From the IMG/VR virus record IMGVR_UViG_2617270943_000002, positions 1 to 36,815 of that record: a stretch of DNA of 36,815 nucleotides. One strand, 5' to 3'. Positions 1,301 to 36,815 of the stretch are shown here, piece by piece (the stretch's first letter is position 1; each line of letters begins with the position of its first letter). The stretch comes from a virus (lineage: Duplodnaviria; Heunggongvirae; Uroviricota; Caudoviricetes). The notes below the pieces were generated by a model. That model did not search any database and was not told the origin of the DNA. It saw nothing but the letters and a program-made list of their open reading frames with translations. Made by a program: the position numbers and the translations under genes.

Positions 1301-1332
1301 GTGATCTTTATCGAATAATACACGAGGTGAAA

Positions 1333-3939
1333 ATGAATAAGTTATTCATAAATCATATCAACGAAAATTATATTCAGATAAGTCATCGTTCATCTTTTAA
1401 TTGCAATACTGAATTGTTTAACGCAACTGTATCAGTTGGTAAGTCGCTTGAGGATTTAATCTGCGCTTGTCGGTCTCTGAGTATAGAAGGTGCGGATGGT
1501 AACAATTTAAGCATTATAACTAGCAGCCTGAAGAAAAAACTAAGAGAGCTTGTTGTTACAAATTTTCCCTTAACAAAAGTCTACCAACAAACAGAATTTG
1601 GTCCTGGAGTAAAACAAGAAGAAATCAACTCATCTTCTATGATAATTCAAATATTTCAATTTTACCTAGGGGCGATATCTAATTGTGATATCATATTACA
1701 TCTCAAATTTTTTGTTGAAAGCCTTTCTATTACGGAGTCATTTGTTGGCAAACCCCCAAAAACTCTTTTACATGAATATTTCCAAAGACATCAACACATA
1801 ATTCCTACATACAAAACCACCTTGGCTGGTGGGACCGAGCATGCACCAATATATGAGTCTGAAATAGCACTTCCTAATGGACAGATATTTATCGGAAGTG
1901 GTGAGAGTAAAAAAAAAGCAGAGAATAATGTTGCCAGTTTAGTTTGCAATCATTTGAATTTGAAAAACAATAAAAAACAAATATTAAAATCTAATAGTAT
2001 TATTTCAGCATGGGGTGGCGTACAGAAACCGAATGTTAAAGAGTGTTACATCAACAATGAATTGAACATGGCTTTTGGTTTTTCAAATAACTTTAATTCA
2101 ATCCAGGCTTTTATACCCCCTAGAATAAAGGGTAAAAATAGATCTATAAGTTCGCACAGAGATCTCGCTACTTTAGGTTCGCATTATATTTCCTTACTAG
2201 CTTCAGTAAGCCTACTTGAGATAATAAAAAATGGACAGAATGTTATTGACAGAACTACGTTAGGGATCATGGTGTTATCTGAAAAAAACTTTATGAGATT
2301 CTATAACTCAGGTTTTATTTCAATAGATTCTCTCCCCTATAAAGGACATCCAGATTATACAACTATATCTTATTATGTAGATTGTATTCAGGCATTGTTT
2401 GGAATGTCTCTTCTAAATCTGATAACTAAAAATAGTAAAATTCAATATAATGAGTTAATTTGCTCTTCCTCTGCAACAAATTGGTTGTACAAAAGAATAA
2501 AAAACTATAATTTGGATGAAGAATCTAATAAAGATATTATACCGACACTGACTTTGCATAGAATGCAAAAATACGGATTTGTATTTAAACTTATAAAAAA
2601 TCTAGATGTATATCAGCTTGAAATAGCTCATATTCGTAATGGGGATAATTTTGTTATCTATGCAGATCCTCTAATTCAAACAAGAAAAGATGCGATGACT
2701 AGGCTTGCGGGAAGTTGCCTTAAAGCATTGGATAGACTTGAAGGTGTGTTTCTCGAACCTCCTAGGTCTGAAGATTCTAAAAAAAATCAAAAAAAATTGA
2801 TTTCATACTTACTTCGTAATATATCAGAAGACAGGCCAGTGGTCTTAAGTGAAGAGCAACTCTCCGTAATATCAAAGAAAAAAAATGAATACGTACAATA
2901 TGACTTTGATATGCTTAAAGAAAAATTCTTGTCACAAGAAATGAATTACCTTGAAGCTTCAGTTATATTATTTTTACTCCACCAAAAATTAATGTTGGTG
3001 GACGACAGCATTGATAATATTTGCTATCTATCGCTACCTATTTGGAGTGATCAAAATTCTCTTGACTACGATAATTTTAATGATTCATCTGCAGATGCAG
3101 ATGCAGATGCAGATAATCATGTAAATATAAATTTTATTCTGGATTCCATTGAAGATTCCCAAGAAAAACAGTATATAAACTATGATAGCGCCGCTAAAGC
3201 CAGCAGTTTGGGTGAGATTTTATCAAGATATGATAGGTTAAATGCAGATTGTTTATCTCAATTATGGGATAAAAGGAAAAGTAGTTTTAAATACATTGAA
3301 GAAGCTGCAATAGTGCTCTCTAAAATTCGTTATGAGCGAGGATTAGATTTTAAGTTAATGAGTTACAAAAATTTTCTATCTACCAGCATGATTAAAGAAC
3401 TTCAACTTCCATCGTTTGATGAAGAAAACTCAAAACCCTTACAAATAAAGTCAGATTTACAGCTTGCAAAAGTAAAAAAACAATCTAAAAAAATATTTAG
3501 TGCTACTGAAAAATTTGATTTTTCAACAGCAGGGAGTTTTAAAATAAATAACTCTGATGAACGAAAGGTTATAAATAGAAACGTCACGATACGTATAGGT
3601 CAAAGCGACTTCAGAAATAAACTGATAAACGTTTGGGGGCAATGTGCCTTTACTGGGTGCAAAACAATAGCAGTACTTGATGCAGCTCATATTTATCCTT
3701 ACAGAGGAGATAAGGATAATCATATAAAAAATGGCTTGTTATTGCGTACTGATATACATCGTCTCTTTGATAACTATCTAATATCTATTGACCCAGCGAC
3801 TTTAAGGATTCACGTAAGTGATATGGTGCGCGATAGGTACTATCAGGAGCTGAATGGTGTCCTATTGAGGGACAAGGTTGGGTTGTCTATGCAAGCTCTA
3901 GAATACCATTGGTTTTATTTTACATCACAGGGTGATTAG
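1333..3939 (+). CDS. Large AT-rich protein with a dsRBD-like region (approx. aa 143-212) and a C-terminal HNH nuclease domain; function unknown, candidate defense nuclease
   Basis: ORF 1327(GTG)/1333(ATG)..3939 with GAGGTG RBS just upstream; dsRBM-like motif PPKTLLHEYFQ...PTYK...GGTEHAPIYESEIALPNGQIFIGSGESKKKAENNVASLV; HNH_2-like motif CAFTGCKTIAVLDAAHIYPYRGDKDNHIKNGLLLRTDIHRLFDNYLISIDP near the C-terminus; codon composition very AT-rich relative to the flanking phage genes. Confidence 0.6.
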   Translation: MNKLFINHINENYIQISHRSSFNCNTELFNATVSVGKSLEDLICACRSLSIEGADGNNLSIITSSLKKKLRELVVTNFPLTKVYQQTEFGPGVKQEEINSSSMIIQIFQFYLGAISNCDIILHLKFFVESLSITESFVGKPPKTLLHEYFQRHQHIIPTYKTTLAGGTEHAPIYESEIALPNGQIFIGSGESKKKAENNVASLVCNHLNLKNNKKQILKSNSIISAWGGVQKPNVKECYINNELNMAFGFSNNFNSIQAFIPPRIKGKNRSISSHRDLATLGSHYISLLASVSLLEIIKNGQNVIDRTTLGIMVLSEKNFMRFYNSGFISIDSLPYKGHPDYTTISYYVDCIQALFGMSLLNLITKNSKIQYNELICSSSATNWLYKRIKNYNLDEESNKDIIPTLTLHRMQKYGFVFKLIKNLDVYQLEIAHIRNGDNFVIYADPLIQTRKDAMTRLAGSCLKALDRLEGVFLEPPRSEDSKKNQKKLISYLLRNISEDRPVVLSEEQLSVISKKKNEYVQYDFDMLKEKFLSQEMNYLEASVILFLLHQKLMLVDDSIDNICYLSLPIWSDQNSLDYDNFNDSSADADADADNHVNINFILDSIEDSQEKQYINYDSAAKASSLGEILSRYDRLNADCLSQLWDKRKSSFKYIEEAAIVLSKIRYERGLDFKLMSYKNFLSTSMIKELQLPSFDEENSKPLQIKSDLQLAKVKKQSKKIFSATEKFDFSTAGSFKINNSDERKVINRNVTIRIGQSDFRNKLINVWGQCAFTGCKTIAVLDAAHIYPYRGDKDNHIKNGLLLRTDIHRLFDNYLISIDPATLRIHVSDMVRDRYYQELNGVLLRDKVGLSMQALEYHWFYFTSQGD
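3091..3114 (+). repeat. Hexanucleotide microsatellite (GCAGAT)x4 inside the 870-aa ORF, encoding ADADADAD
   Basis: gcagatgcagatgcagatgcagat read directly. Confidence 0.9.
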
Positions 3940-7844: not shown

Positions 7845-8519
7845 TTAGGCCTTTATTGTGTATCTTCTTGGTTTTCCCGAGAAAATCACTGTACCAATTA
7901 TAGAGCAATTACCGTTAATCTTAATGTAAGGCTCAGGCCAGTTTGGGTTTAATGCTTTGAGATAACGCTGTGTTCCATCTTCTATCAATCGCTTGAAGGT
8001 GGTTTCGCCTGTATCGTGCATCAATGCAATAACGTCGTCACCGTGGCAGGCAGGGACTTCGGGATCAACAAAAATCATGTCTCCAGGGCGGTACTCATCA
8101 ATCATTGAATCACCAATCACCCGCAAGATATAAGTCATTTCGCCACAGGGTACAGGGCAGGGATACGTTTCTGCTGTGCTCAAATCAACCTCAGAATAGC
8201 CAACTTCTTTCCATGCTCCGGCCTGTACCCATGATATGACAGGGACTAACGTTATTTGTTTGTTAGTGATTGAAACATCAGGTTTTTTTGTGATGTTCGT
8301 TGTCTGGTGTTCTTGATCAAGCCATCCGACAGGCAGGTCGAAACATTTTTCGATGTGCCGTGCCATGCTGTCACCGATATTTTTAGTAGCGCCATCCCCC
8401 ATAAACCTGCTGGTTTGGGTTGGCTCGCGATCAATCATGGTGGCAAAGGATGAATTTCCGCCAACACCATCTCTCAGTTTTCTGGCGTTAGACCGCCGGA
8501 TGTCATGGATTGTTTTCAT
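7845..8519 (-). CDS. cI: CI-type repressor (N-terminal HTH, C-terminal S24/LexA-like autopeptidase domain)
   Basis: 224 aa; C-terminal domain contains a GDSM motif consistent with the S24 peptidase Ser; divergent from the cro-like gene across an operator-bearing intergenic region. Confidence 0.8.
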   Translation of the reverse strand: MKTIHDIRRSNARKLRDGVGGNSSFATMIDREPTQTSRFMGDGATKNIGDSMARHIEKCFDLPVGWLDQEHQTTNITKKPDVSITNKQITLVPVISWVQAGAWKEVGYSEVDLSTAETYPCPVPCGEMTYILRVIGDSMIDEYRPGDMIFVDPEVPACHGDDVIALMHDTGETTFKRLIEDGTQRYLKALNPNWPEPYIKINGNCSIIGTVIFSGKPRRYTIKA

Positions 8520-9749: not shown

Positions 9750-10691
9750 ATGAGCACTAAATTAACCGGCTATGTATGGGATGGTTGCGCTGCATCAGGC
9801 ATGAAATTATCCAGCGTGGCAATTATGGCCCGCCTGGCTGATTTCAGTAATGACGAAGGTGTGTGCTGGCCATCAATTGAAACTATTGCCCGTCAGATTG
9901 GCGCGGGGATGAGTACCGTCAGGACGGCTATCGCACGGCTGGAAGCAGAAGGCTGGTTAACGCGTAAGGCGCGTCGCCAGGGTAACCGCAATGCGTCGAA
10001 TGTTTATCAGCTTAACGTTGCGAAGCTTCAGGCAGCGGCATTTTCTCAACTGTCAGATTCTGACCCGTCAAAATCTGACGCATCAAAATCTGACCCGTCA
10101 AAATTTGATGCGTCGAAATCTGGCAAAAAAGCGGGTTTTCACCCGTCAGAATCTGGCGGGGATCCGTCAGTAAAATCAAAACATGATCCGTTAGATAAAA
10201 AACCTTCTCGTCCGGACGCTTCGCAACCGGACACGCAGACGGATGAACAGGATTTTTTAACTCGCCATCCTGATGCGGTTGTATTCAGCCCTAAAAAGCG
10301 CCAGTGGGGAACGCAGGATGATTTGACCTGCGCACAGTGGCTCTGGAAAAAAATCATTGCCCTGTACGAGCAGGCCGCCGAATGTGACGGCGAGGTGGTT
10401 CGTCCCAAAGAACCGAACTGGACAGCATGGGCAAACGAAATTCGCCTGATGTGTGTGCAGGATGGTCGTACTCACAAACAAATCTGCGAGATGTACAGCC
10501 GCGTCAGCCGCGATCCGTTCTGGTGCCGTAACGTGCTCAGCCCGTCGAAGTTGCGGGAAAAATGGGATGAGCTTTCCCTGCGCTTATCGCCGTCCGTCAG
10601 CACGCACACAGAAAAACGTGAAGACCCGTACTTCAAAGCCAGTTACGACAACGTGGACTACAGCCAGATCCCGGCAGGATTCAGGGGGTGA
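9750..10691 (+). CDS. Replication initiation protein, O-like (N-terminal HTH, internal iteron-encoded linker, C-terminal DnaT-like region)
   Basis: 313 aa; the central region encodes the pentapeptide repeats SDPSK/SDASK/SDPSK/FDASK from 15-bp DNA iterons; position equivalent to lambda O. Confidence 0.65.
   Translation: MSTKLTGYVWDGCAASGMKLSSVAIMARLADFSNDEGVCWPSIETIARQIGAGMSTVRTAIARLEAEGWLTRKARRQGNRNASNVYQLNVAKLQAAAFSQLSDSDPSKSDASKSDPSKFDASKSGKKAGFHPSESGGDPSVKSKHDPLDKKPSRPDASQPDTQTDEQDFLTRHPDAVVFSPKKRQWGTQDDLTCAQWLWKKIIALYEQAAECDGEVVRPKEPNWTAWANEIRLMCVQDGRTHKQICEMYSRVSRDPFWCRNVLSPSKLREKWDELSLRLSPSVSTHTEKREDPYFKASYDNVDYSQIPAGFRG
10059..10118 (+). repeat. Four tandem 15-bp iterons (TCTGACCCGTCAAAA-like) inside the O-like gene; putative phage origin of replication
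   Basis: TCTGACCCGTCAAAA / TCTGACGCATCAAAA / TCTGACCCGTCAAAA / TTTGATGCGTCGAAA read directly; degenerate copies flank both sides (about 10050-10170). Confidence 0.6.
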
Positions 10692-11182
10692 TCATGAGTC
10701 TTTTGAATGACGTTCAGAAATTCATTGAAGCCCATCCGGGCTGTACTTCCGGAGACATTGCGGATGCTTTTGCAGGTTACTCACGGCAGCGCGTTCTGCA
10801 GTCAGCAAGCAAGTTACGTCAGAGTGGGCGTGTGGCTCACCGTTGTGAAGGAGATACACGCAGACATTTCCCGCGCCTGACTGAGAGAGCGCAGGAGCCG
10901 GAACCACAACCTGTTCGTGAAACCAGACCTGTGCGCAATTTCTATGTCGGCACTAACGATCCCCGGGTGATTTTGTGCCTGATCCGCCAGGCTGAAGAGC
11001 TAGAGTCCAGGGGCTTATACCGTCGTGCTGCAACCGTGTGGATGGCGGCATTCCGTGAAAGCCACTCCCAGCCAGAACGAAACAATTTTCTGGCGCATCG
11101 TGAACGGTGCTTACGGAAAAGCAGCAAGCGCGCTGCATCGGGTGAAGAGTGGTATCTGTCAGGGAATTACGTGGGGGCTTAA
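10688..11182 (+). CDS. PerC/ANR-like putative transcriptional regulator (164 aa)
   Basis: Contains ...RGLYRRAATVWMAAFRES... resembling the W/RRAA motif of PerC-type proteins; assignment tentative. Confidence 0.4.
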   Translation: MIMSLLNDVQKFIEAHPGCTSGDIADAFAGYSRQRVLQSASKLRQSGRVAHRCEGDTRRHFPRLTERAQEPEPQPVRETRPVRNFYVGTNDPRVILCLIRQAEELESRGLYRRAATVWMAAFRESHSQPERNNFLAHRERCLRKSSKRAASGEEWYLSGNYVGA

Positions 11183-11508
11183 TGACGACGTTAACTCAAT
11201 GCCAGCAGCAGGTGCTGGATATGCTGATTTCTTATCAGAAAGAACGTGGCTTCCCGCCAACCAATCAGGAGGTGGCAACCATGCTGGGATACCGTTCAGT
11301 GAATGCAGCGGTGGAGCATCTTCGCGCACTGGAGAAAAAAGGCGTCATCACGATAAAGCGTGGCGTGGCCCGGGGGATAACGCTTCATACCGCGGTGAAG
11401 GACGACGACAGCGAGGCGGTCGGGATTATCCGCTCACTGCTTGCCGGTGAGGAAAACGCAAGGCTGCGTGCAACCCACTGGTTACATGAGAGAGGCCTGA
11501 AAGCATGA
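11182..11508 (+). CDS. LexA N-terminal DNA-binding-domain-like protein lacking a peptidase domain (108 aa)
   Basis: MTTLTQCQQQVLDMLISYQKERGFPPTNQEVATMLGYRSVNAAVEHLRALEKKGVITIKRGVARGI closely parallels the LexA winged-helix domain; ATG overlaps the upstream stop (TAATG). Confidence 0.6.
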   Translation: MTTLTQCQQQVLDMLISYQKERGFPPTNQEVATMLGYRSVNAAVEHLRALEKKGVITIKRGVARGITLHTAVKDDDSEAVGIIRSLLAGEENARLRATHWLHERGLKA

Positions 11509-11894
11509 AGCTGATCCTGCCTTTTCCGCCCAGCGTGAACACGTACTGGCGACACCCCAACAAAGGGGCGTTTGCAGGTAAGAGCCTGATAAGCGCGGCG
11601 GGGCGAAAATTCCAGAGCGCGGCGTGTGCAGCAATAGTTGAGCAGTTACGTCGTCTGCCAAAACCAACGTCGGCACCTGCTTCAGTGGAGATCGTGTTGT
11701 TTCCTCCGGATAACCGGATCCGCGATCTGGACAACTATAACAAGGCGCTGTTTGACGCCCTGACCCACGCGGGTGTGTGGGAGGACGACAGTCAGGTGAA
11801 AAGAATGCTGGTTGAGTGGGGACCGGTTATCCCGAAAGGGAAGGTCGAGATCACTATCAGTAAGTATGAGAAACCGGCGGGTGCAGCCGCCTGA
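11505..11894 (+). CDS. rusA: RusA-family Holliday junction resolvase
   Basis: LPFPPSVNTYWRH... and DLDNYNKALFDALT motifs characteristic of RusA. Confidence 0.8.
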   Translation: MKLILPFPPSVNTYWRHPNKGAFAGKSLISAAGRKFQSAACAAIVEQLRRLPKPTSAPASVEIVLFPPDNRIRDLDNYNKALFDALTHAGVWEDDSQVKRMLVEWGPVIPKGKVEITISKYEKPAGAAA

Positions 11895-11913: not shown

Positions 11914-12723
11914 ATGAATAATCTGATGGTCATTGATGGTATTGAAGTTCGTCGTGATGCTTATGGGCGTTACAGCCTGAACGATCTGCATCGCGCAGCA
12001 GTAGCATCTGGTGCAAATGCCAGAACCAAGGAGCCGGGAAAGTTTCTTTCCAGCCAACAAACTGTTGAGCTTGTTCATGAATTGACCAACACCCAGAATT
12101 TGGGTGTTGACCCGGTGAGTGTGATTCATGGGGGAAATGAACGGGGAACGTATGTCTGCAAGGAACTGGTGTATGCCTATGCAATGTGGATCAGCCCGTC
12201 ATTCCATCTGAAGGTGATCCGTACTTTCGATATGGTAACCAGCGCACCGGAAAAATTATCCGGACAGGCTGCTGACAAGATGCAGGCTGGCGTGATCCTG
12301 CTGGACTTTATGCGCCGGGAGTTAAACCTGTCTAACTCTTCAGTGCTTGGTGCCTGTCAGAAACTCCAGGAGGCTGTTGGCTTACCGAATCTGGCACCGC
12401 GCTATGCCATTGATGCTCCTGCTGACGCGCCTGATGGCTCAAGCCGCCCCACGCTATCATTGAGTGCACTGCTGAAGCAGTATGGTATCCGCCTGACAGC
12501 TAATCAGGCATATCACCAGATGGCGAAGCTGGGGATCGTTGAACAACGTGAACGATACAGCCGCACTGCGATTAACAACATCAAAAAATTCTGGTCGCTG
12601 ACGGCGAAAGGCTGCATGTTCGGCAAGAACATCACCAGTCCCGCAAATCCGCGCGAGACGCAGCCGCATTTCTTCGAATCCCGATTCCCTGAGCTGTTAA
12701 AGCTGCTCGATACCGTTCATTGA
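11914..12723 (+). CDS. KilA-N domain protein (antirepressor-like)
   Basis: N-terminal KilA-N-like region (RYSLNDLHRA..., GTYVCKELVYAYAMWISPSFHLKV). Confidence 0.6.
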   Translation: MNNLMVIDGIEVRRDAYGRYSLNDLHRAAVASGANARTKEPGKFLSSQQTVELVHELTNTQNLGVDPVSVIHGGNERGTYVCKELVYAYAMWISPSFHLKVIRTFDMVTSAPEKLSGQAADKMQAGVILLDFMRRELNLSNSSVLGACQKLQEAVGLPNLAPRYAIDAPADAPDGSSRPTLSLSALLKQYGIRLTANQAYHQMAKLGIVEQRERYSRTAINNIKKFWSLTAKGCMFGKNITSPANPRETQPHFFESRFPELLKLLDTVH

Positions 12724-12724
12724 G

Positions 12725-13720
12725 GTGACCGTGAGAGCACTACTGACCCCTGAAATTGCCCCGCGTATGGGGATCGTATTGTTCAGACCAGGTTCAGAGC
12801 TGATGCCCTTGTTTATGCAGGGGCGTGTCTTGCTGGAGCCTGAGCCGGAACGTTATTCATCTTTCGCCAGTGGTGCCGTTCCGGCGGCATCACAACCGCT
12901 GGCGGATGATCCTGCCGTTCGGGCCGTGTTCCGCAATGAGGCAGTGATCCGTCGTGCTGGTGGCGTGGAATGTCTTGAAAGCTGGTTACTTCGTGAAAAA
13001 GGCTGCCAGTGGCCTCATTCCGACTGGCACAGCGAGAACATGACAACAATGCGACACGCTCCGGGCGCAATCCGTTTGTGCTGGCACTGCGATAACCAGC
13101 TGCGCGATCAGTTCACGGAACGGCTGGAATCAATGGCAACGGATAACAGTGCCCGCTGGGTGTTGTCTGTTGTGCGTCGGGATCTCGGTTTTGATGACAG
13201 TCATGTTGTGACAATGCCGGAACTGTGCTGGTGGCTGATTCGTAATGATCTGGCGGATGCCTTACCGGAAAGTGCAGCCCGTAAGGCACTGAGATTACCG
13301 AAGCCTGTTGTGCCGTCTGTTACCCGGGAAAGTGACCTTGTGCCTTCGGTTCCTGCCACCAGCATCATCCAGGATAAGGCGAAAAAGGTGCTGGCGCTGA
13401 AAGTGGATCCGGAGTCGCCGGAGTCTTTTATGTTACGCCCCAAACGTCGCCGCTGGGTTAATGAAAAGTACACGCGATGGGTTAAGACGCAGCCGTGCGC
13501 ATGTTGTGGAAAACCTGCTGATGATCCCCACCACCTGATAGGTCACGGTCAGGGTGGAATGGCTACAAAAGCGCATGACCTCTTTGTGTTGCCTTTGTGC
13601 AGAAAGCATCACGACGAGCTGCATGCGGATACCGTGGCATTTGAAGAGAAGTATGGCTCCCAGCTGGAGCTGATATTTCGTTTTATCGATCGTGCACTGG
13701 CAATTGGCGTGCTGGCCTGA
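12725..13720 (+). CDS. DUF968-like protein with C-terminal HNH-type zinc-finger motif (331 aa; start uncertain)
   Basis: C-terminal CACCGKPADDPHHLIGHGQGG...CRKHHDELH; possible starts at GTG 12725/12731 or ATG 12767. Confidence 0.55.
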   Translation: MTVRALLTPEIAPRMGIVLFRPGSELMPLFMQGRVLLEPEPERYSSFASGAVPAASQPLADDPAVRAVFRNEAVIRRAGGVECLESWLLREKGCQWPHSDWHSENMTTMRHAPGAIRLCWHCDNQLRDQFTERLESMATDNSARWVLSVVRRDLGFDDSHVVTMPELCWWLIRNDLADALPESAARKALRLPKPVVPSVTRESDLVPSVPATSIIQDKAKKVLALKVDPESPESFMLRPKRRRWVNEKYTRWVKTQPCACCGKPADDPHHLIGHGQGGMATKAHDLFVLPLCRKHHDELHADTVAFEEKYGSQLELIFRFIDRALAIGVLA

Positions 13721-13737
13721 TTTTGTGGAGAAAGTTG

Positions 13738-14079
13738 ATGCGTGATATGTATGAAGTATTGGACCGCTGGGGTGCATGGGCTGCAGCAGATAACAGTGGT
13801 GTGGACTGGCAGCCTGTTGCTGCAGGGTTTAAAGGTTTACTACCTCATGGAAAGAAAACACGCCAACAATGCGATGATGATGAAGGAATCATGATTGACA
13901 GCTGTGTTGCGCGATTGCGGAAATATAAGCCCGAAGAGTATGAGTTGGTTATTGCTCATTTTGTTATCGGCATCTCACTAAGAACTATTGCAAAGAAGCA
14001 GAAGTGTTCTGATGGGACAATAAGAAAAGAGTTGCAAACAGCTCTTGGTTTTCTGGATGGTGTGCTTTCAATGTTGTAA
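13738..14079 (+). CDS. Q: Late-gene antitermination protein Q-like (113 aa)
   Basis: ATG 13738 with GGAGAAAG RBS; small protein at the canonical position upstream of the lysis region. Confidence 0.6.
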   Translation: MRDMYEVLDRWGAWAAADNSGVDWQPVAAGFKGLLPHGKKTRQQCDDDEGIMIDSCVARLRKYKPEEYELVIAHFVIGISLRTIAKKQKCSDGTIRKELQTALGFLDGVLSML

Positions 14080-14084
14080 TATTA

Positions 14085-14108
14085 GGGGGAATTACCCCCC
14101 TTTTTTTC
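14085..14108 (+). terminator. Hairpin plus T-run immediately after Q (GGGGG-AATTA-CCCCCC-TTTTTTT); overlaps the 3' end of the convergent membrane-protein gene
   Basis: Perfect G5/C5-6 stem with a 7-T run read directly. Confidence 0.55.
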
Positions 14109-14640
14109 TCTGTTGCTTTAATAAAATTTTAATGTTTTGTCTGATTATGATGAGGCAATGTAATAAAAGAAATACCGTTAGTATTGCAAGCCATACGCAA
14201 AATAAGCATGCATATAAATTAGTTGAAAGTCCAATAGTGAATTGTGCAATTGCTGTTGTGATAGAACATAATATTGATGTATTAATAAATGAGGATAAAT
14301 TGTCTAAAGGTTTATAAAGTACACTATCATTGATTTTGTCAATAGGTATACCAGTGGCAATGCTATAAATTTCCTTATATTCCTGAGTTGCAAAAACCTT
14401 ATCGCGTAAATTTATTATGACAAAGGTATGCAGGCTCAATAAAAATGAGCCCACGGAAATAAAACCGGAGAAGAGATAGCCTCGTAAGTTTTTATGATAA
14501 AAATCAAAAAAGTTAACACTTACTTTAGGTGTGTTTCTGTACAATAGGTAAAGTGCAAGCAATGCCAGGATCGAGAATGCAAGCAGTGTAAGGTACTGAT
14601 ACCTCAATCTTTTATTTATTAGCCATTCATATAAAGGCAT
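14092..14640 (-). CDS. AT-rich predicted inner-membrane protein with about 4 TM helices (182 aa); function unknown
   Basis: Hydrophobic segments YLTLLAFSILALLALYLLY, LFSGFISVGSFLLSLHTFVIINL, ILCSITTAIAQFTIGL, LYACLFCVWLAILTVFLLLHCLIII; start overlaps the upstream gene by 14 nt. Confidence 0.75.
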   Translation of the reverse strand: MPLYEWLINKRLRYQYLTLLAFSILALLALYLLYRNTPKVSVNFFDFYHKNLRGYLFSGFISVGSFLLSLHTFVIINLRDKVFATQEYKEIYSIATGIPIDKINDSVLYKPLDNLSSFINTSILCSITTAIAQFTIGLSTNLYACLFCVWLAILTVFLLLHCLIIIRQNIKILLKQQRKKGG

Positions 14641-15553
14641 TTTTATTCGTCCCGTTCAGCATTTCTTCTTTTATCATATCAAAAACAGGGTTTGTTGTAT
14701 AATTATCGTTTGTCAATCCATTGACTTTATCGGCAATTATATCGAAATCGTATGTTTCAAAAAAAACAGGGCAGTTCATAAAATCAATGGTTTTTTCTAT
14801 TCCTGCATGGTTTACTGCAATAACCTGTGCTTTAGCAACTCCACTCATAGAATTATAAATATTTGAAAGATTCTGAGATAGTTGTTGCACTTTTGTTCTG
14901 TCGCTAGAATTAAAATTCATATCTATTGTGGTAGTGTTAACAAATTGTTCAAGCGCAGTCATTGGTCCACCTTTAAAATCTATATAATTAAATTTAAAGC
15001 TTGTGCTTTTAATCTCTTTGAATTGACATAAAACACTCTGAATGTTGTTTTTATTTGTCATAAGGCTGAAAGTCAGTCTTTCTTTGTATTTTTTATTTAT
15101 TGCAGTTACTTCTTTTTGTTTTGGTTTATCACCAAGTTTTTTTATTTCTTCTTTATTTTGATTTCTGATAAATTCATTACTTATTGTTTCTAAATGAGAA
15201 AAGAGAGTGTTCAGACTGCATGACCCGTGGTGATACATATAGAGACCAGAAAGATTAGATTTTTTAATTAAGAAAAAGTTGAAATTAGCAAGTTTGTCAC
15301 TTCCTTGAAGATCTTCAATTTTAAGCTGGAATTTACCATCAACAAATTGCGACTTACAGTTCTTTTTTTGGTTTCTGAATGTGACAACTAATCCATAATA
15401 GAAATCATTCACATCCGAAATGAGAATTTTACGAGTATAGTCTGTGCGACTGTGTTCTCTGTTTGATGCGTTGATAAAAGCATTCATTACGTCAACGGTA
15501 TTAATATTTTTGTTATTGTTATTTATTGTAAATCCTATGCTTCTAACTTTCAT
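14627..15553 (-). CDS. AT-rich soluble protein (308 aa), no recognisable family; upstream partner of the membrane protein
   Basis: Long uninterrupted ORF, N/K-rich, in a low-GC island embedded in a high-GC phage backbone; translationally coupled to the downstream TM gene. Confidence 0.75.
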   Translation of the reverse strand: MKVRSIGFTINNNNKNINTVDVMNAFINASNREHSRTDYTRKILISDVNDFYYGLVVTFRNQKKNCKSQFVDGKFQLKIEDLQGSDKLANFNFFLIKKSNLSGLYMYHHGSCSLNTLFSHLETISNEFIRNQNKEEIKKLGDKPKQKEVTAINKKYKERLTFSLMTNKNNIQSVLCQFKEIKSTSFKFNYIDFKGGPMTALEQFVNTTTIDMNFNSSDRTKVQQLSQNLSNIYNSMSGVAKAQVIAVNHAGIEKTIDFMNCPVFFETYDFDIIADKVNGLTNDNYTTNPVFDMIKEEMLNGTNKNAFI

Positions 15554-15817
15554 GTGTATTCCAGGACCGACTAAAGTTAGCGAGAATGGGGACGCATAGT
15601 TTATAAAAATCCTAACGCGTACGCAAAAAGTATTATATCGTGTTAAGAGTGGTTACTTCGCCACACAACTTAAACCCGCCGCTGAGCGGTTTTTTTGTAC
15701 CTGTAAACCTTGTGCAGTACAGTAAACACGCTGGTGGTCGTGAATACTGGCTTTTTATCTTGCTGGCTTTTTAGACAAGAGTTATTGGTATGTCATGTTA
15801 ACCAGAAGGGAAAAGAC

Positions 15818-16021
15818 ATGCTAAAACAGCAAGATATGACAGAAACCGCCGCCGCAGTCCTTCATTTCTTACCTGCTGACAAGTGGGTAACGCCACGCAT
15901 GATGACGAGAACTACCGGAGTAAGCGAAGCCAGGTGCCAGTTAATACTGACTCAGTTAGTTCTGGCGGGTCTGGCGAAGGATAACGGCGGGTACGGGAAT
16001 AAATTCAGACGCTGCCAGTAA
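15818..16021 (+). CDS. Small putative winged-helix DNA-binding protein (67 aa)
   Basis: ATG 15818 (MLKQQDMTETAAAVLHFLPADKWVTPRMMTRTTGVSEARCQLILTQLVLAGLAKDNG...); tentative. Confidence 0.3.
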   Translation: MLKQQDMTETAAAVLHFLPADKWVTPRMMTRTTGVSEARCQLILTQLVLAGLAKDNGGYGNKFRRCQ

Positions 16022-16171
16022 TGGCGGTTTCCTGCTGTGAAAATGGGCGGCTGGTGGGTGTTGGTAGCACCTGCCAGCCATTCGCTCATGCTTACTGGTC
16101 ACAAGCGAACCACGGCCCACTGCTTTAGCGCAAAAGCAGAGTGAGCCTACCAGAGTTACGCTTACTGATCC

Positions 16172-17224
16172 ATGAAAAATACTGTAAAAATAAACAGTGT
16201 TGATTTAATCAACGCTGATTGCCTGCATTTTATTCAGTCCCTGCCTGATGATTCCATTGACCTGATTGTTACCGATCCGCCTTACTTCAAGGTGAAACCT
16301 AACGGTTGGGACAATCAGTGGAAAGGGGACGAAGATTACCTTAAGTGGCTGGACCACTGTCTGGCCCAGTTCTGGCGGGTGTTAAAACCTGCCGGAAGCC
16401 TTTACCTGTTCTGTGGGCATCGCCTGGCATCTGATATTGAGATCATGATGCGTGAACGTTTCAACGTGCTTAACCATATCATCTGGGCGAAGCCGTCCGG
16501 ACGTTGGAATGGGTGTAATAAAGAAAGTCTGCGCGCATATTTTCCTGCCACAGAGCGCGTTCTGTTTGCTGAACATTACCAGGGGCCATATCGCGGCAAA
16601 AGTGACGGCTATGCGGCAAAAGAAAGGGAACTCAAACAGCACATAATGGCACCGCTGATATCGTATTTCAGGGATGCTCGTGCCGAACTAGGGATAACGG
16701 CAAAACAAATTGCCGAAGCCACAGGTAAGAAAAATATGGTTTCCCACTGGTTTGGTGCCAGTCAGTGGCAGTTGCCGAATGAGGCTGACTATCGGAAGTT
16801 ACAGGCACTGTTTTCCCGTATAGCGGCAGAGAAGTTTCAGGAACAACAACTGGAACAACCACACCACCAGCTGGTGGCGTCTTATGATTCACTGAATCGC
16901 AAATATTCTGAATTGCTGGATGAGTTTAAATCTCTCCGGCGCTATTTCTCCGTATCAGTCTCCGTGCCTTATACCGATGTCTGGATGCATAAACCCGTTC
17001 AGTTCTACCCGGGTAAACATCCGTGTGAGAAACCGGCGGATATGCTCAGGCAAATAATCAATGCCAGTAGTCGACCTGGTGATCTGGTTGCTGATTTTTT
17101 TATGGGATCCGGTTCCACAATAAAAGCAGCAATGGCGCTGGGGCGTCGGGCCTTAGGTGTTGAGCTTGAGTCAGAGCGGTTTAACCAGACAGTGAAAGAG
17201 ATAAACGAGCTGGTGGGGAAATAA
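16172..17224 (+). CDS. DNA methyltransferase (beta-class amino-MTase; DPPY motif precedes FxGxG SAM-binding motif); N6-adenine or N4-cytosine specific
   Basis: IVTDPPYF near the N-terminus and DFFMGSGST near the C-terminus. Confidence 0.8.
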
Positions 17225-36100: not shown

Positions 36101-36231
36101 TCGGTATTGGTGCTCATACGCACTCCGTTGCGATTGGTTCACATGGACACACCATCACCGTTAACGCTGCTGGTAACGCGGAAAACACCGTCAAAAACAT
36201 CGCATTTAACTATATTGTGAGGCTTGCATAA
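33157..36231 (+). CDS. stf: Side tail fibre protein Stf (mosaic; extended Ala/Ser-rich shaft and His-rich distal tip)
   Basis: N-terminus [80 protein letters not shown] and C-terminal ...[29 protein letters not shown] are lambda-Stf-like; ATG 33157 (GTG 33151 also possible). Confidence 0.85.
34552..34780 (+). repeat. Direct duplication of about 100 bp (129-bp period) within stf, encoding two copies of the motif KGI(V/I)[11 protein letters not shown](S/T)[11 protein letters not shown]
   Basis: Two near-identical DNA segments starting near 34552 and 34681. Confidence 0.8.
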
Positions 36232-36815
36232 TGGCATTCAGAATGAGTGAACAACCACGGACCATAAAAATTTATAATCTGCTGGCCGGAACTAATGAAT
36301 TTATTGGTGAAGGTGACGCATATATTCCGCCTCATACAGGTCTGCCAGCAAACAGTACCGATATTGCACCGCCAGATATTCCGGCTGGCTTCGTGGCTGT
36401 TTTCAACAGTGATGAGTCATCGTGGCATCTCGTTGAAGATCATCGGGGTAAAACGGTTTATGACGTGGCTTCCGGCAACGCGTTATTTATTTCTGAACTC
36501 GGTCCGTTACCGGAAAATGTTACTTGGTTATCGCCGGAAGGGGAGTTTCAGAAGTGGAACGGCACAGCCTGGGTGAAAGATGCAGAAGCAGAAAAACTAT
36601 TCCGGATCCGGGAGGCGGAAGAAACAAAAAACAGCCTGATGCAGGTAGCCAGTGAGCATATAGCGCCACTTCAGGATGCTGTAGATCTGGAGATCGCAAC
36701 GGAGGAAGAAACCTCATTGCTGGAAGCCTGGAAAAAATATCGGGTGTTGCTGAACCGTGTTAATACAACAACTGCACCGGATATTGAATGGCCAACAGTA
36801 CCCATTATCGAATAG
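36231..36815 (+). CDS. tfa: Tail fibre assembly protein Tfa
   Basis: 194 aa, lambda Tfa-like ([58 protein letters not shown]...); start overlaps the stf stop. Confidence 0.9.

Follow-up and report, generated by a model that had tools for sequence, protein, structure and literature searches.

LexA DNA-Binding Domains without a Peptidase

In Escherichia coli LexA, a winged-helix DNA-binding domain (residues 1–69; structures 1lea and 3jso) is followed by a flexible hinge and then by an S24 peptidase domain that is also the dimerization domain, dimerization being required by LexA for tight binding to DNA. Here, we analyze a phage-encoded protein of 108 amino acids that has the same winged helix and, instead of the S24 domain, an alpha-hairpin of 30 residues. 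Its gene (called short LexA throughout, as is its product) belongs to a delayed-early operon and occupies positions 11182..11508 on the + strand (ATG at 11182, TGA at 11506–11508) of the 36,815-nucleotide Caudoviricetes record IMGVR_UViG_2617270943_000002, the whole of which we refer to as the window. The window is an E. coli lambdoid prophage; the product of the gene is identical to WP_000210169.1 ("LexA family protein") of E. coli MB56, on whose chromosome the same gene neighborhood lies beside an integrase gene and leucine tRNA genes.

A truncated LexA homologue has been functionally characterized in GIL01, a tectivirus of Bacillus thuringiensis, whose gp6 binds a site that overlaps the −35 element of the late promoter P3 and activates this promoter (PMC6182141). 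Like short LexA, gp6 is a phage-encoded LexA DNA-binding domain that has no protease and is expressed from an early operon; however, gp6 is 66 amino acids long and has no tail, whereas short LexA extends into a linker and hairpin. The two also differ in their DNA-reading surfaces: gp6 binds GaCACAnnTGTGaC, which is unrelated to the host LexA box, and in a MAFFT alignment it has lysine (K38) at the position of N41 and arginine at the position of E45, whereas short LexA keeps the asparagine and the glutamate. BLASTP found no similarity between short LexA and gp6. A common origin of the two was therefore rejected and, given that their recognition helices differ as well, they are better regarded as independent truncations that arose in unrelated phage lineages. 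Judged by sequence, the recognition helix of short LexA is far closer to that of LexA than is the helix of gp6.

The DNA-binding moiety of LexA is also active when separated from the peptidase in the host, where the free N-terminal domain keeps some SOS-box binding and repression and must be removed by ClpXP for SOS induction to proceed (PMC10584840). Both the LexA(1–84) fragment and the noncleavable LexA(Ind−) resemble short LexA in presenting a DNA-binding moiety that RecA* cannot inactivate. The host fragment reportedly bears a ClpX degron (VAA) at its end and is broken down; short LexA, in contrast, runs on into a folded hairpin, its C-terminus reading GLKA.

Short LexA is not new as an object, and its family is a known, catalogued class of phage-borne LexA-domain proteins that have no S24 domain. 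Its match to PHROG 362 ("transcriptional repressor") is full-length, residues 1–107 aligning with profile positions 1–105 of 106 (E 1.5e-59), and the protein is named "LexA family protein" or "LexA family transcriptional regulator" by NCBI; the genes of mEp460, SfV, SfII, cdtI, and the Shiga toxin phages of types Stx2a and Stx2c are members of this same family at 95–100% identity. In a comparison of Shiga toxin phages, it is recorded for 15 phages under the designation "pham 237, LexA family transcriptional regulator, pfam01726," with no functional work (PMC8136144), and our full-text literature search found no functional study of the E. coli/Shigella phage short LexA. Several GenBank records (LR595868, KF030445, and AB285204) label the 108-amino acid protein "SOS-response repressor and protease LexA" or "RecA-mediated autopeptidases," labels that are wrong, as no peptidase domain is present. 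Many other viral proteins consisting only of a LexA domain are found in BFVD. Tandem and bare LexA-domain proteins (the bare ones having 65–82 amino acids) are encoded by phages and in metagenomes and likewise combine a LexA DNA-binding domain with the absence of S24, but they carry a duplication of the domain or no extra module at all where short LexA carries a linker and hairpin. The features that are the family's own are this tail, the retained LexA reading head, and a near-obligate RusA neighbor.

A LexA Reading Head Followed by a Linker and Hairpin

Residues 1–65 of short LexA match the complete Pfam model PF01726 (LexA_DNA_bind; model positions 1–65 of 65, E 2.9e-19, with a score of 69 bits where the gathering score is 23.7) and share ~50% identity with the N-terminal domain of E. 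coli LexA. The top match in a sequence search of the Protein Data Bank is the E. coli LexA DNA-binding domain itself (1lea, E 6.9e-16), full-length LexA also being among the best matches (E ~1e-15), and Foldseek superimposes the first of two AlphaFold models on the LexA–DNA complex 3jso with a root-mean-square deviation of 0.9 Å over 68 residues at 50% identity. The two models, with predicted local distance difference test (pLDDT) scores of 78 and 84, agree on the domain layout. Pfam, AlphaFold, and Foldseek together delimit a LexA-type winged helix-turn-helix at residues 1–68 (11182..11385, + strand), in which helices span residues 6–22, 28–35, and 40–52 and strands span residues 56–58 and 66–68. 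A flexible acidic linker follows at residues 69–75 (11386..11406, + strand; pLDDT <50, the disordered stretch in the models being residues 71–75), aligning with the LexA hinge, and leads into a conserved alpha-hairpin at residues 73–103 (11398..11490, + strand), the two helices of which (residues 73–88 and 93–103) are predicted with a pLDDT of ~88–90.

There is no match to the S24 domain (PF00717) in the short LexA protein, which ends at residue 108, and the lexA equivalog model TIGR00498 is matched only at positions 1–91 of 203, scoring 70.8 bits and thus falling under its cut-off of 110.95. The catalytic Ser119 and Lys156 of LexA are absent, and no frameshifted remnant of the protease follows, since the next open reading frame (ORF) is RusA. 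With no S24 domain, short LexA is therefore unable to cleave itself in response to RecA*. A first-pass annotation of the window, made by eye from the letters and translated ORFs, had proposed both a protein of 108 amino acids with a LexA-like winged helix and no autopeptidase and the consequent absence of RecA*-driven cleavage, and both proposals are borne out by the full-length PF01726 match, the fit to 3jso, and the missing peptidase domain. Short LexA is almost certainly a sequence-specific DNA binder of the LexA type that RecA* cannot inactivate.

The residues of LexA helix III that contact DNA are given in a secondary source as Ser39, Asn41, Ala42, Glu44, and Glu45 (PMC3091678), and residue numbering is the same in LexA and short LexA up to residue 69. 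In our alignments, the recognition helix of short LexA, VNAAVEHLRALEK (LexA: PNAAEEHLKALAR; residues 40–52, 11299..11337, + strand), together with the preceding S39, retains four of these five base-contact residues (S39, N41, A42, and E45), position 44 being occupied by valine. A profile search of 1.8 billion representatives yielded divergent full-length relatives at 38–50% identity (P0122, P0124, P0125, P0128, P0132, P0133, P0139, P0148, P0150, and P0162), among which S39, K53, and the wing residues R64-G65-I66 are invariant and N41 is nearly so. The fold and most of the reading head accordingly follow LexA and depart from it systematically at a single contact position. Because the recognition helix and wing stay LexA-like, the sites bound would most likely be SOS boxes of the CTGT type.

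Residues 70–90 align with the hinge/cleavage region of LexA (EAVGIIRSLLAGEE vs. EGLPLVGRVAAGEP; the HMMER alignment continues through residue 90, which corresponds to LexA residue 86), and this suggests that the gene goes back to a complete lexA that was cut short a little beyond the cleavage site. Within this segment, A88-G89 of short LexA aligns with A84-G85 of LexA (LLA88-G89-EE vs. VAA84-G85-EP). We considered this pair as a functional cleavage site and rejected it: the pair is not conserved, reading VG or AN in close relatives and AG in only three of 12 divergent members, and the segment that contains it is predicted to be helical. What is conserved in the tail is a hydrophobic pattern (positions 80, 82, 83, 86, 87, 93, 97, 100, and 101) in which A97 and L101 never vary and an aromatic residue usually occupies position 100, and the tail as a whole evolves faster than the DNA-binding domain (23–50% vs. 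44–56% identity).

On its own, a hairpin of 30 residues tethered by a flexible linker would probably not be stable, and we therefore infer that it dimerizes or binds a partner. Given its conservation at the C-terminus, the hairpin probably replaces the S24 domain as the dimerization module. Other S24-less proteins arrive at two DNA-binding domains differently: several of metagenomic origin carry two LexA_DNA_bind domains in tandem (P0136, P0138, P0147, P0158, P0127, P0129, and P0135) and are in effect single-chain pseudo-dimers, which suggests that a pair of DNA-binding domains is a functional requirement. Bare LexA domains of 69–82 amino acids also occur (P0131, P0163, and P0177). These arrangements indicate several independent routes to RecA-insensitive DNA binders of the LexA type.

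Operon Setting and Expression

Codon overlaps with both neighbors and the lack of transcription signals of its own make short LexA one cistron of a rightward delayed-early operon. Its start overlaps the stop of a PerC-family ORF directly 5′ of it (10688..11182, + strand; TAATG), its stop overlaps the start of the gene for the Holliday-junction resolvase RusA (11505..11894, + strand; ATGA), and a Shine-Dalgarno-like GGGGG run lies 6 nucleotides 5′ of its ATG; a scan of the + strand around the gene found no promoter-like or terminator-like site belonging to it. Also on the + strand, the operon includes a replication protein (9750–10691), a KilA-N domain protein (11914..12723), and a DUF968/HNHc_6 protein (12725..13720), and it ends with the Q antiterminator (13723..14079). 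The RusA, KilA-N, and PerC-like neighbors are those that the first-pass annotation had named. Lacking a separate promoter within this replication/nin operon, the gene is probably expressed only once the prophage has been induced or a cell has been infected.

The prophage encodes its own S24-peptidase repressor, a ymfK-like protein with a Peptidase_S24 domain, at 7845..8519 on the − strand, and short LexA is therefore not the immunity repressor. Indeed, it lies ~2.7 kb downstream of the repressor gene and inside the rightward operon, and it shows neither the S24 domain nor the orientation, divergent from a cro-like gene, of an immunity repressor. The further suggestion that short LexA could uncouple prophage induction from DNA damage is unlikely in view of this separate repressor and of the position of the gene, promoterless, in a delayed-early operon.

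Distribution and Linkage to RusA

Of 5426 complete E. coli genomes, 2233 (~40%) carry the gene, in up to four copies each and with nearly all copies at 95–100% identity; it also occurs in 61 phage records. The phage carriers include mEp460 (gp46), SfV (orf42), SfII, SfIV, cdtI, the Stx2a phages 1447 and WGPS2, seventeen Stx2c phages, and one Stx2k phage; more distant copies are found in mEp390 and in phages of Klebsiella, Edwardsiella, Hafnia, and Proteus.

In 58 of 59 full-length E. coli copies, which were sampled evenly down the match ranking, the RusA gene begins within the 3′ end of short LexA, and the 5′ neighbor is a phage N6-adenine methyltransferase or a PerC-like gene. The arrangement extends to members of only 38–45% identity, at whose loci the order is methyltransferase or replication gene, short LexA, RusA, KilA-N or Rha/ANT, DUF968, and Q (five divergent loci: L007–L009, L010/L011, L012, L014, and L015), RusA being separated from short LexA by no more than one small inserted gene. 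Among the new observations on the family, this linkage stands out most. It may only reflect the conserved gene order of lambdoid nin regions, and it also leaves room for a functional link.

Candidate DNA Targets

We searched for SOS boxes with a position weight matrix built from 26 known E. coli boxes and not derived from a database. On this matrix, the only strong box in the window is TACTGTAAAAATAAACAGTG (16180..16199), which scores 22.5, the median of the known sites being 20.4. The box covers codons 3–9 of an N6/N4 DNA methyltransferase ORF (16172–17224) in the late operon, located after a PR′-like promoter and terminator and before the lysis genes, and by its sequence is a candidate in-phage target for host LexA and short LexA. 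Through this box, host LexA may control the part of the late operon that holds the methyltransferase and lysis genes.

The CTGT and ACAG cores of the 16180 box are kept in phages of Citrobacter, Morganella, and Providencia, with a variable spacer, and a Klebsiella phage has a CCAG variant of the core; because the box is coding, constraint on the DNA and constraint on the protein are inseparable here. About half of the phages that carry short LexA do not have this methyltransferase. We rejected the box as a dedicated target of short LexA, as it occurs without the gene and the gene occurs without the methyltransferase. Sites of the form CTGT-N8-ACAG with one mismatch number 22 in the window against 11.9 expected, an excess that we rejected as compositional (CTG/CAG bias), spacers of 2–15 giving 9–26 matches. 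No SOS-like box was found in the PR′-like region (15553–15818) at a matrix score of ≥12.

In related phages, strong SOS boxes lie upstream of dinI, inside the 5′ part of cI-like repressor genes, and beside moron genes (mEp460, locus L002, 6831–6878 and 15546–15565; phiNP, locus L003, 4150–4169; locus L010, 5560–5579 and 10164–10183). Host LexA input into these phages seems to be common and varied in form.

Proposed Role and Its Alternatives

We propose, as a plausible reading that we hold tentatively and with somewhat less than even confidence, that short LexA is a RecA-insensitive binder of SOS-type boxes that dimerizes through its hairpin and re-imposes repression on LexA-controlled promoters during lytic growth. 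The protein would have arisen from LexA by loss of S24, leaving the winged helix, the hinge, and the hairpin of ~30 residues, and its gene would be co-transcribed and translationally coupled with its operon neighbors, such that the product appears after induction or infection. With neither a Ser/Lys protease nor a conserved Ala-Gly site, it would escape inactivation by RecA*. Once host LexA had been cleaved, short LexA would restore repression of LexA-controlled promoters, its targets being host SOS genes, competitors under SOS control (colicins and prophages with LexA-dependent antirepressors, for example), and the phage's own box at 16180. The linked RusA would resolve junctions while the SOS-controlled ruvAB genes were held down; since ruvAB belongs to the SOS regulon, a phage that silences this regulon might bring its own resolvase. 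By analogy, a stable, dimeric protein of the LexA N-terminal type would be a potent repressor.

Further observations favor this proposal: gp6, which has a new specificity, has changed exactly N41 and E45, whereas short LexA has not; the late operon contains one strong SOS box that is conserved across genera; and phages of this group carry other SOS modulators, such as dinI in mEp460. Occupancy of SOS boxes without sensitivity to RecA* is a reasonable hypothesis, and the alignment of DNA-contact residues that the first-pass annotation had named as a check comes out mostly in its favor, four of the five contacts being LexA-like.

A number of findings weigh against the proposal. P40 of LexA is valine in short LexA, no member of the family has an acidic residue at position 44 (V, A, T, F, L, or Y instead), and E45, kept in most relatives, is lost in some distant ones, such that the specificity of short LexA may differ from the canonical SOS box. 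Furthermore, no phage target is tied to the gene, because the box is present in Citrobacter phiNP and in phages of Morganella and Providencia, which have no PF01726 protein or ORF of the right size in the region, and the loci with a 44%-identical member (L007–L009) have no SOS box nearby at all. The tight linkage to RusA is rationalized, not predicted, by an SOS repressor, and dimerization through the hairpin is a step that we infer from the tail.

The changes at E44 and P40 and the variation of the recognition helix in distant members count toward a phage-specific transcription factor, in which the LexA fold would be reused for a phage operator and, by activation or repression, time genes such as Q, late, or moron genes with little effect on the host SOS response. 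This reading has a direct precedent in gp6 as an activator of P3, and the gene lies just upstream of the Q module in all loci. We nevertheless consider it rather unlikely, as short LexA keeps N41 and E45 in a helix far nearer to that of LexA than gp6's, gp6 is an independent truncation to which BLASTP finds no relationship, no conserved non-SOS palindrome was identified, and the protein stays 95–100% identical among carriers whose immunity regions and Q types differ. The near-constant position of RusA downstream, immediately so in 58 of the 59 E. coli copies and either directly or after one small gene in the five divergent loci, and the DNA methyltransferase often found upstream could instead point to a DNA-binding accessory of the recombination/replication module that is not a transcription factor and that would act with RusA, and perhaps with the DUF968/HNH nuclease or the upstream methyltransferase, in targeting or modulating junction resolution. 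In lambda, too, the nin region combines the junction resolvase Rap with NinH, a small protein that binds DNA. Conserved gene order is usual in lambdoid nin regions, however, and need not mean physical cooperation; RusA occurs in phage 82 and in DLP12, which are not known to carry a short LexA gene, and the conserved base-contact residues argue for recognition of a sequence-specific operator. An accessory role is on balance improbable.

Two readings that take the resemblance to the LexA cleavage region as their starting point fare worse still. One holds that the hinge-like segment acts as a decoy or pseudo-substrate, engaging host LexA, UmuD, the phage S24 repressor, or RecA* and being cleaved in trans or competing. 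The HMMER alignment to LexA does span the Ala-Gly site, and intermolecular cleavage by the C-terminal domains of LexA and CI is known, but the Ala-Gly pair is found in only three of 12 divergent members and the segment is predicted as a confident helix (pLDDT ~88–90) and not as an extended cleavage loop, making this reading very improbable. The other is that short LexA is a decaying, functionless remnant of a captured lexA, which would fit its resemblance to a LexA truncated just after the cleavage site and the existence of frameshifted and fused variants in databases. This is scarcely credible for a gene that is intact in 2233 of the 5426 complete E. coli genomes at 95–100% identity and whose family keeps the same length, tail pattern, and genomic position at identities as low as 38%. 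Membership in a defense system was also considered and rejected, the PADLOC search having returned only one weak, generic match.

Possible Implications for the SOS Response

In its fullest form, our proposal would make short LexA a RecA-proof SOS super-repressor, carried in prophages of ~40% of E. coli strains, that re-silences the LexA regulon in lytic growth as a hairpin dimer while RusA replaces the silenced RuvABC, a picture that we regard as doubtful when taken as a whole. The regulon so affected would include recA, ruvAB, umuDC, dinB, colicins, and LexA-gated competitor prophages. Were it true, it would constitute a widespread phage countermeasure against the host DNA-damage response, modulating mutagenesis, the induction of co-resident elements, and possibly the output of toxin phages. 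If SOS boxes are indeed occupied, a common prophage gene would dampen SOS exactly when host LexA is destroyed. The gene is present in Shiga toxin phages, cytolethal distending toxin phages, and Shigella O-antigen-converting phages, and such an activity would thus bear on SOS mutagenesis, on the induction of prophages and toxins by antibiotics, and on competition among co-resident mobile elements. It would also provide a natural case of a dimerization-module swap on the LexA DNA-binding domain. If short LexA is a phage-specific regulator instead, it would be an ordinary small transcription factor of a catalogued family.

Other Features of the Window

The region around the late promoter has several features of its own. 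A PR′-like, AT-rich promoter region followed by an intrinsic terminator (stem 15678–15690 and T run) occupies 15600–15705; this region lies downstream of a pair of reverse-strand genes rather than adjoining Q, and an inserted moron thus appears to have moved the late promoter ~1.5 kb away from Q. This pair (14092–15553, − strand), situated between Q and the late promoter, consists of two overlapping ORFs of 182 and 308 amino acids that RefSeq annotates as hypothetical proteins. PADLOC gave no match for either ORF, and the pair is likely moron or defense cargo.

Immediately 5′ of the methyltransferase is a noncoding leader of 150 nucleotides (16022–16171), 77–99% conserved across five enterobacterial genera, that holds an invariant 24-nucleotide block, AAATGGGCGGCTGGTGGGTGTTGG. 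RNAalifold draws two stem-loops in the leader with only two compensatory pairs, and there is no Rfam match. The window contains 12 sites of the Chi sequence GCTGGTGG (e.g., 15730–15737, 16050–16057, 16870–16877, and 17209–17216), 10 of them on the + strand, vs. 1.5 expected from shuffles; one of the copies falls in the leader's invariant block. The bias toward one strand is consistent with the phage genome being protected against RecBCD that enters from the cos side.

Beside the integrase, an ORF of 870 amino acids (1327–3939, + strand) includes an HNH nuclease region (PADLOC HNH models, E 7e-12) and is possibly a prophage-borne defense gene; the corresponding stretch of MB56 carries two annotated genes, "putative dsRNA-binding protein" and "HNH endonuclease." At the other end of the window, positions 36574–36772 (+ strand) are a full-length match to Rfam RF02111 (IS009; 223.8 bits vs. 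a gathering score of 117), which sits inside an ORF starting at 36231 in the tail-fiber region.

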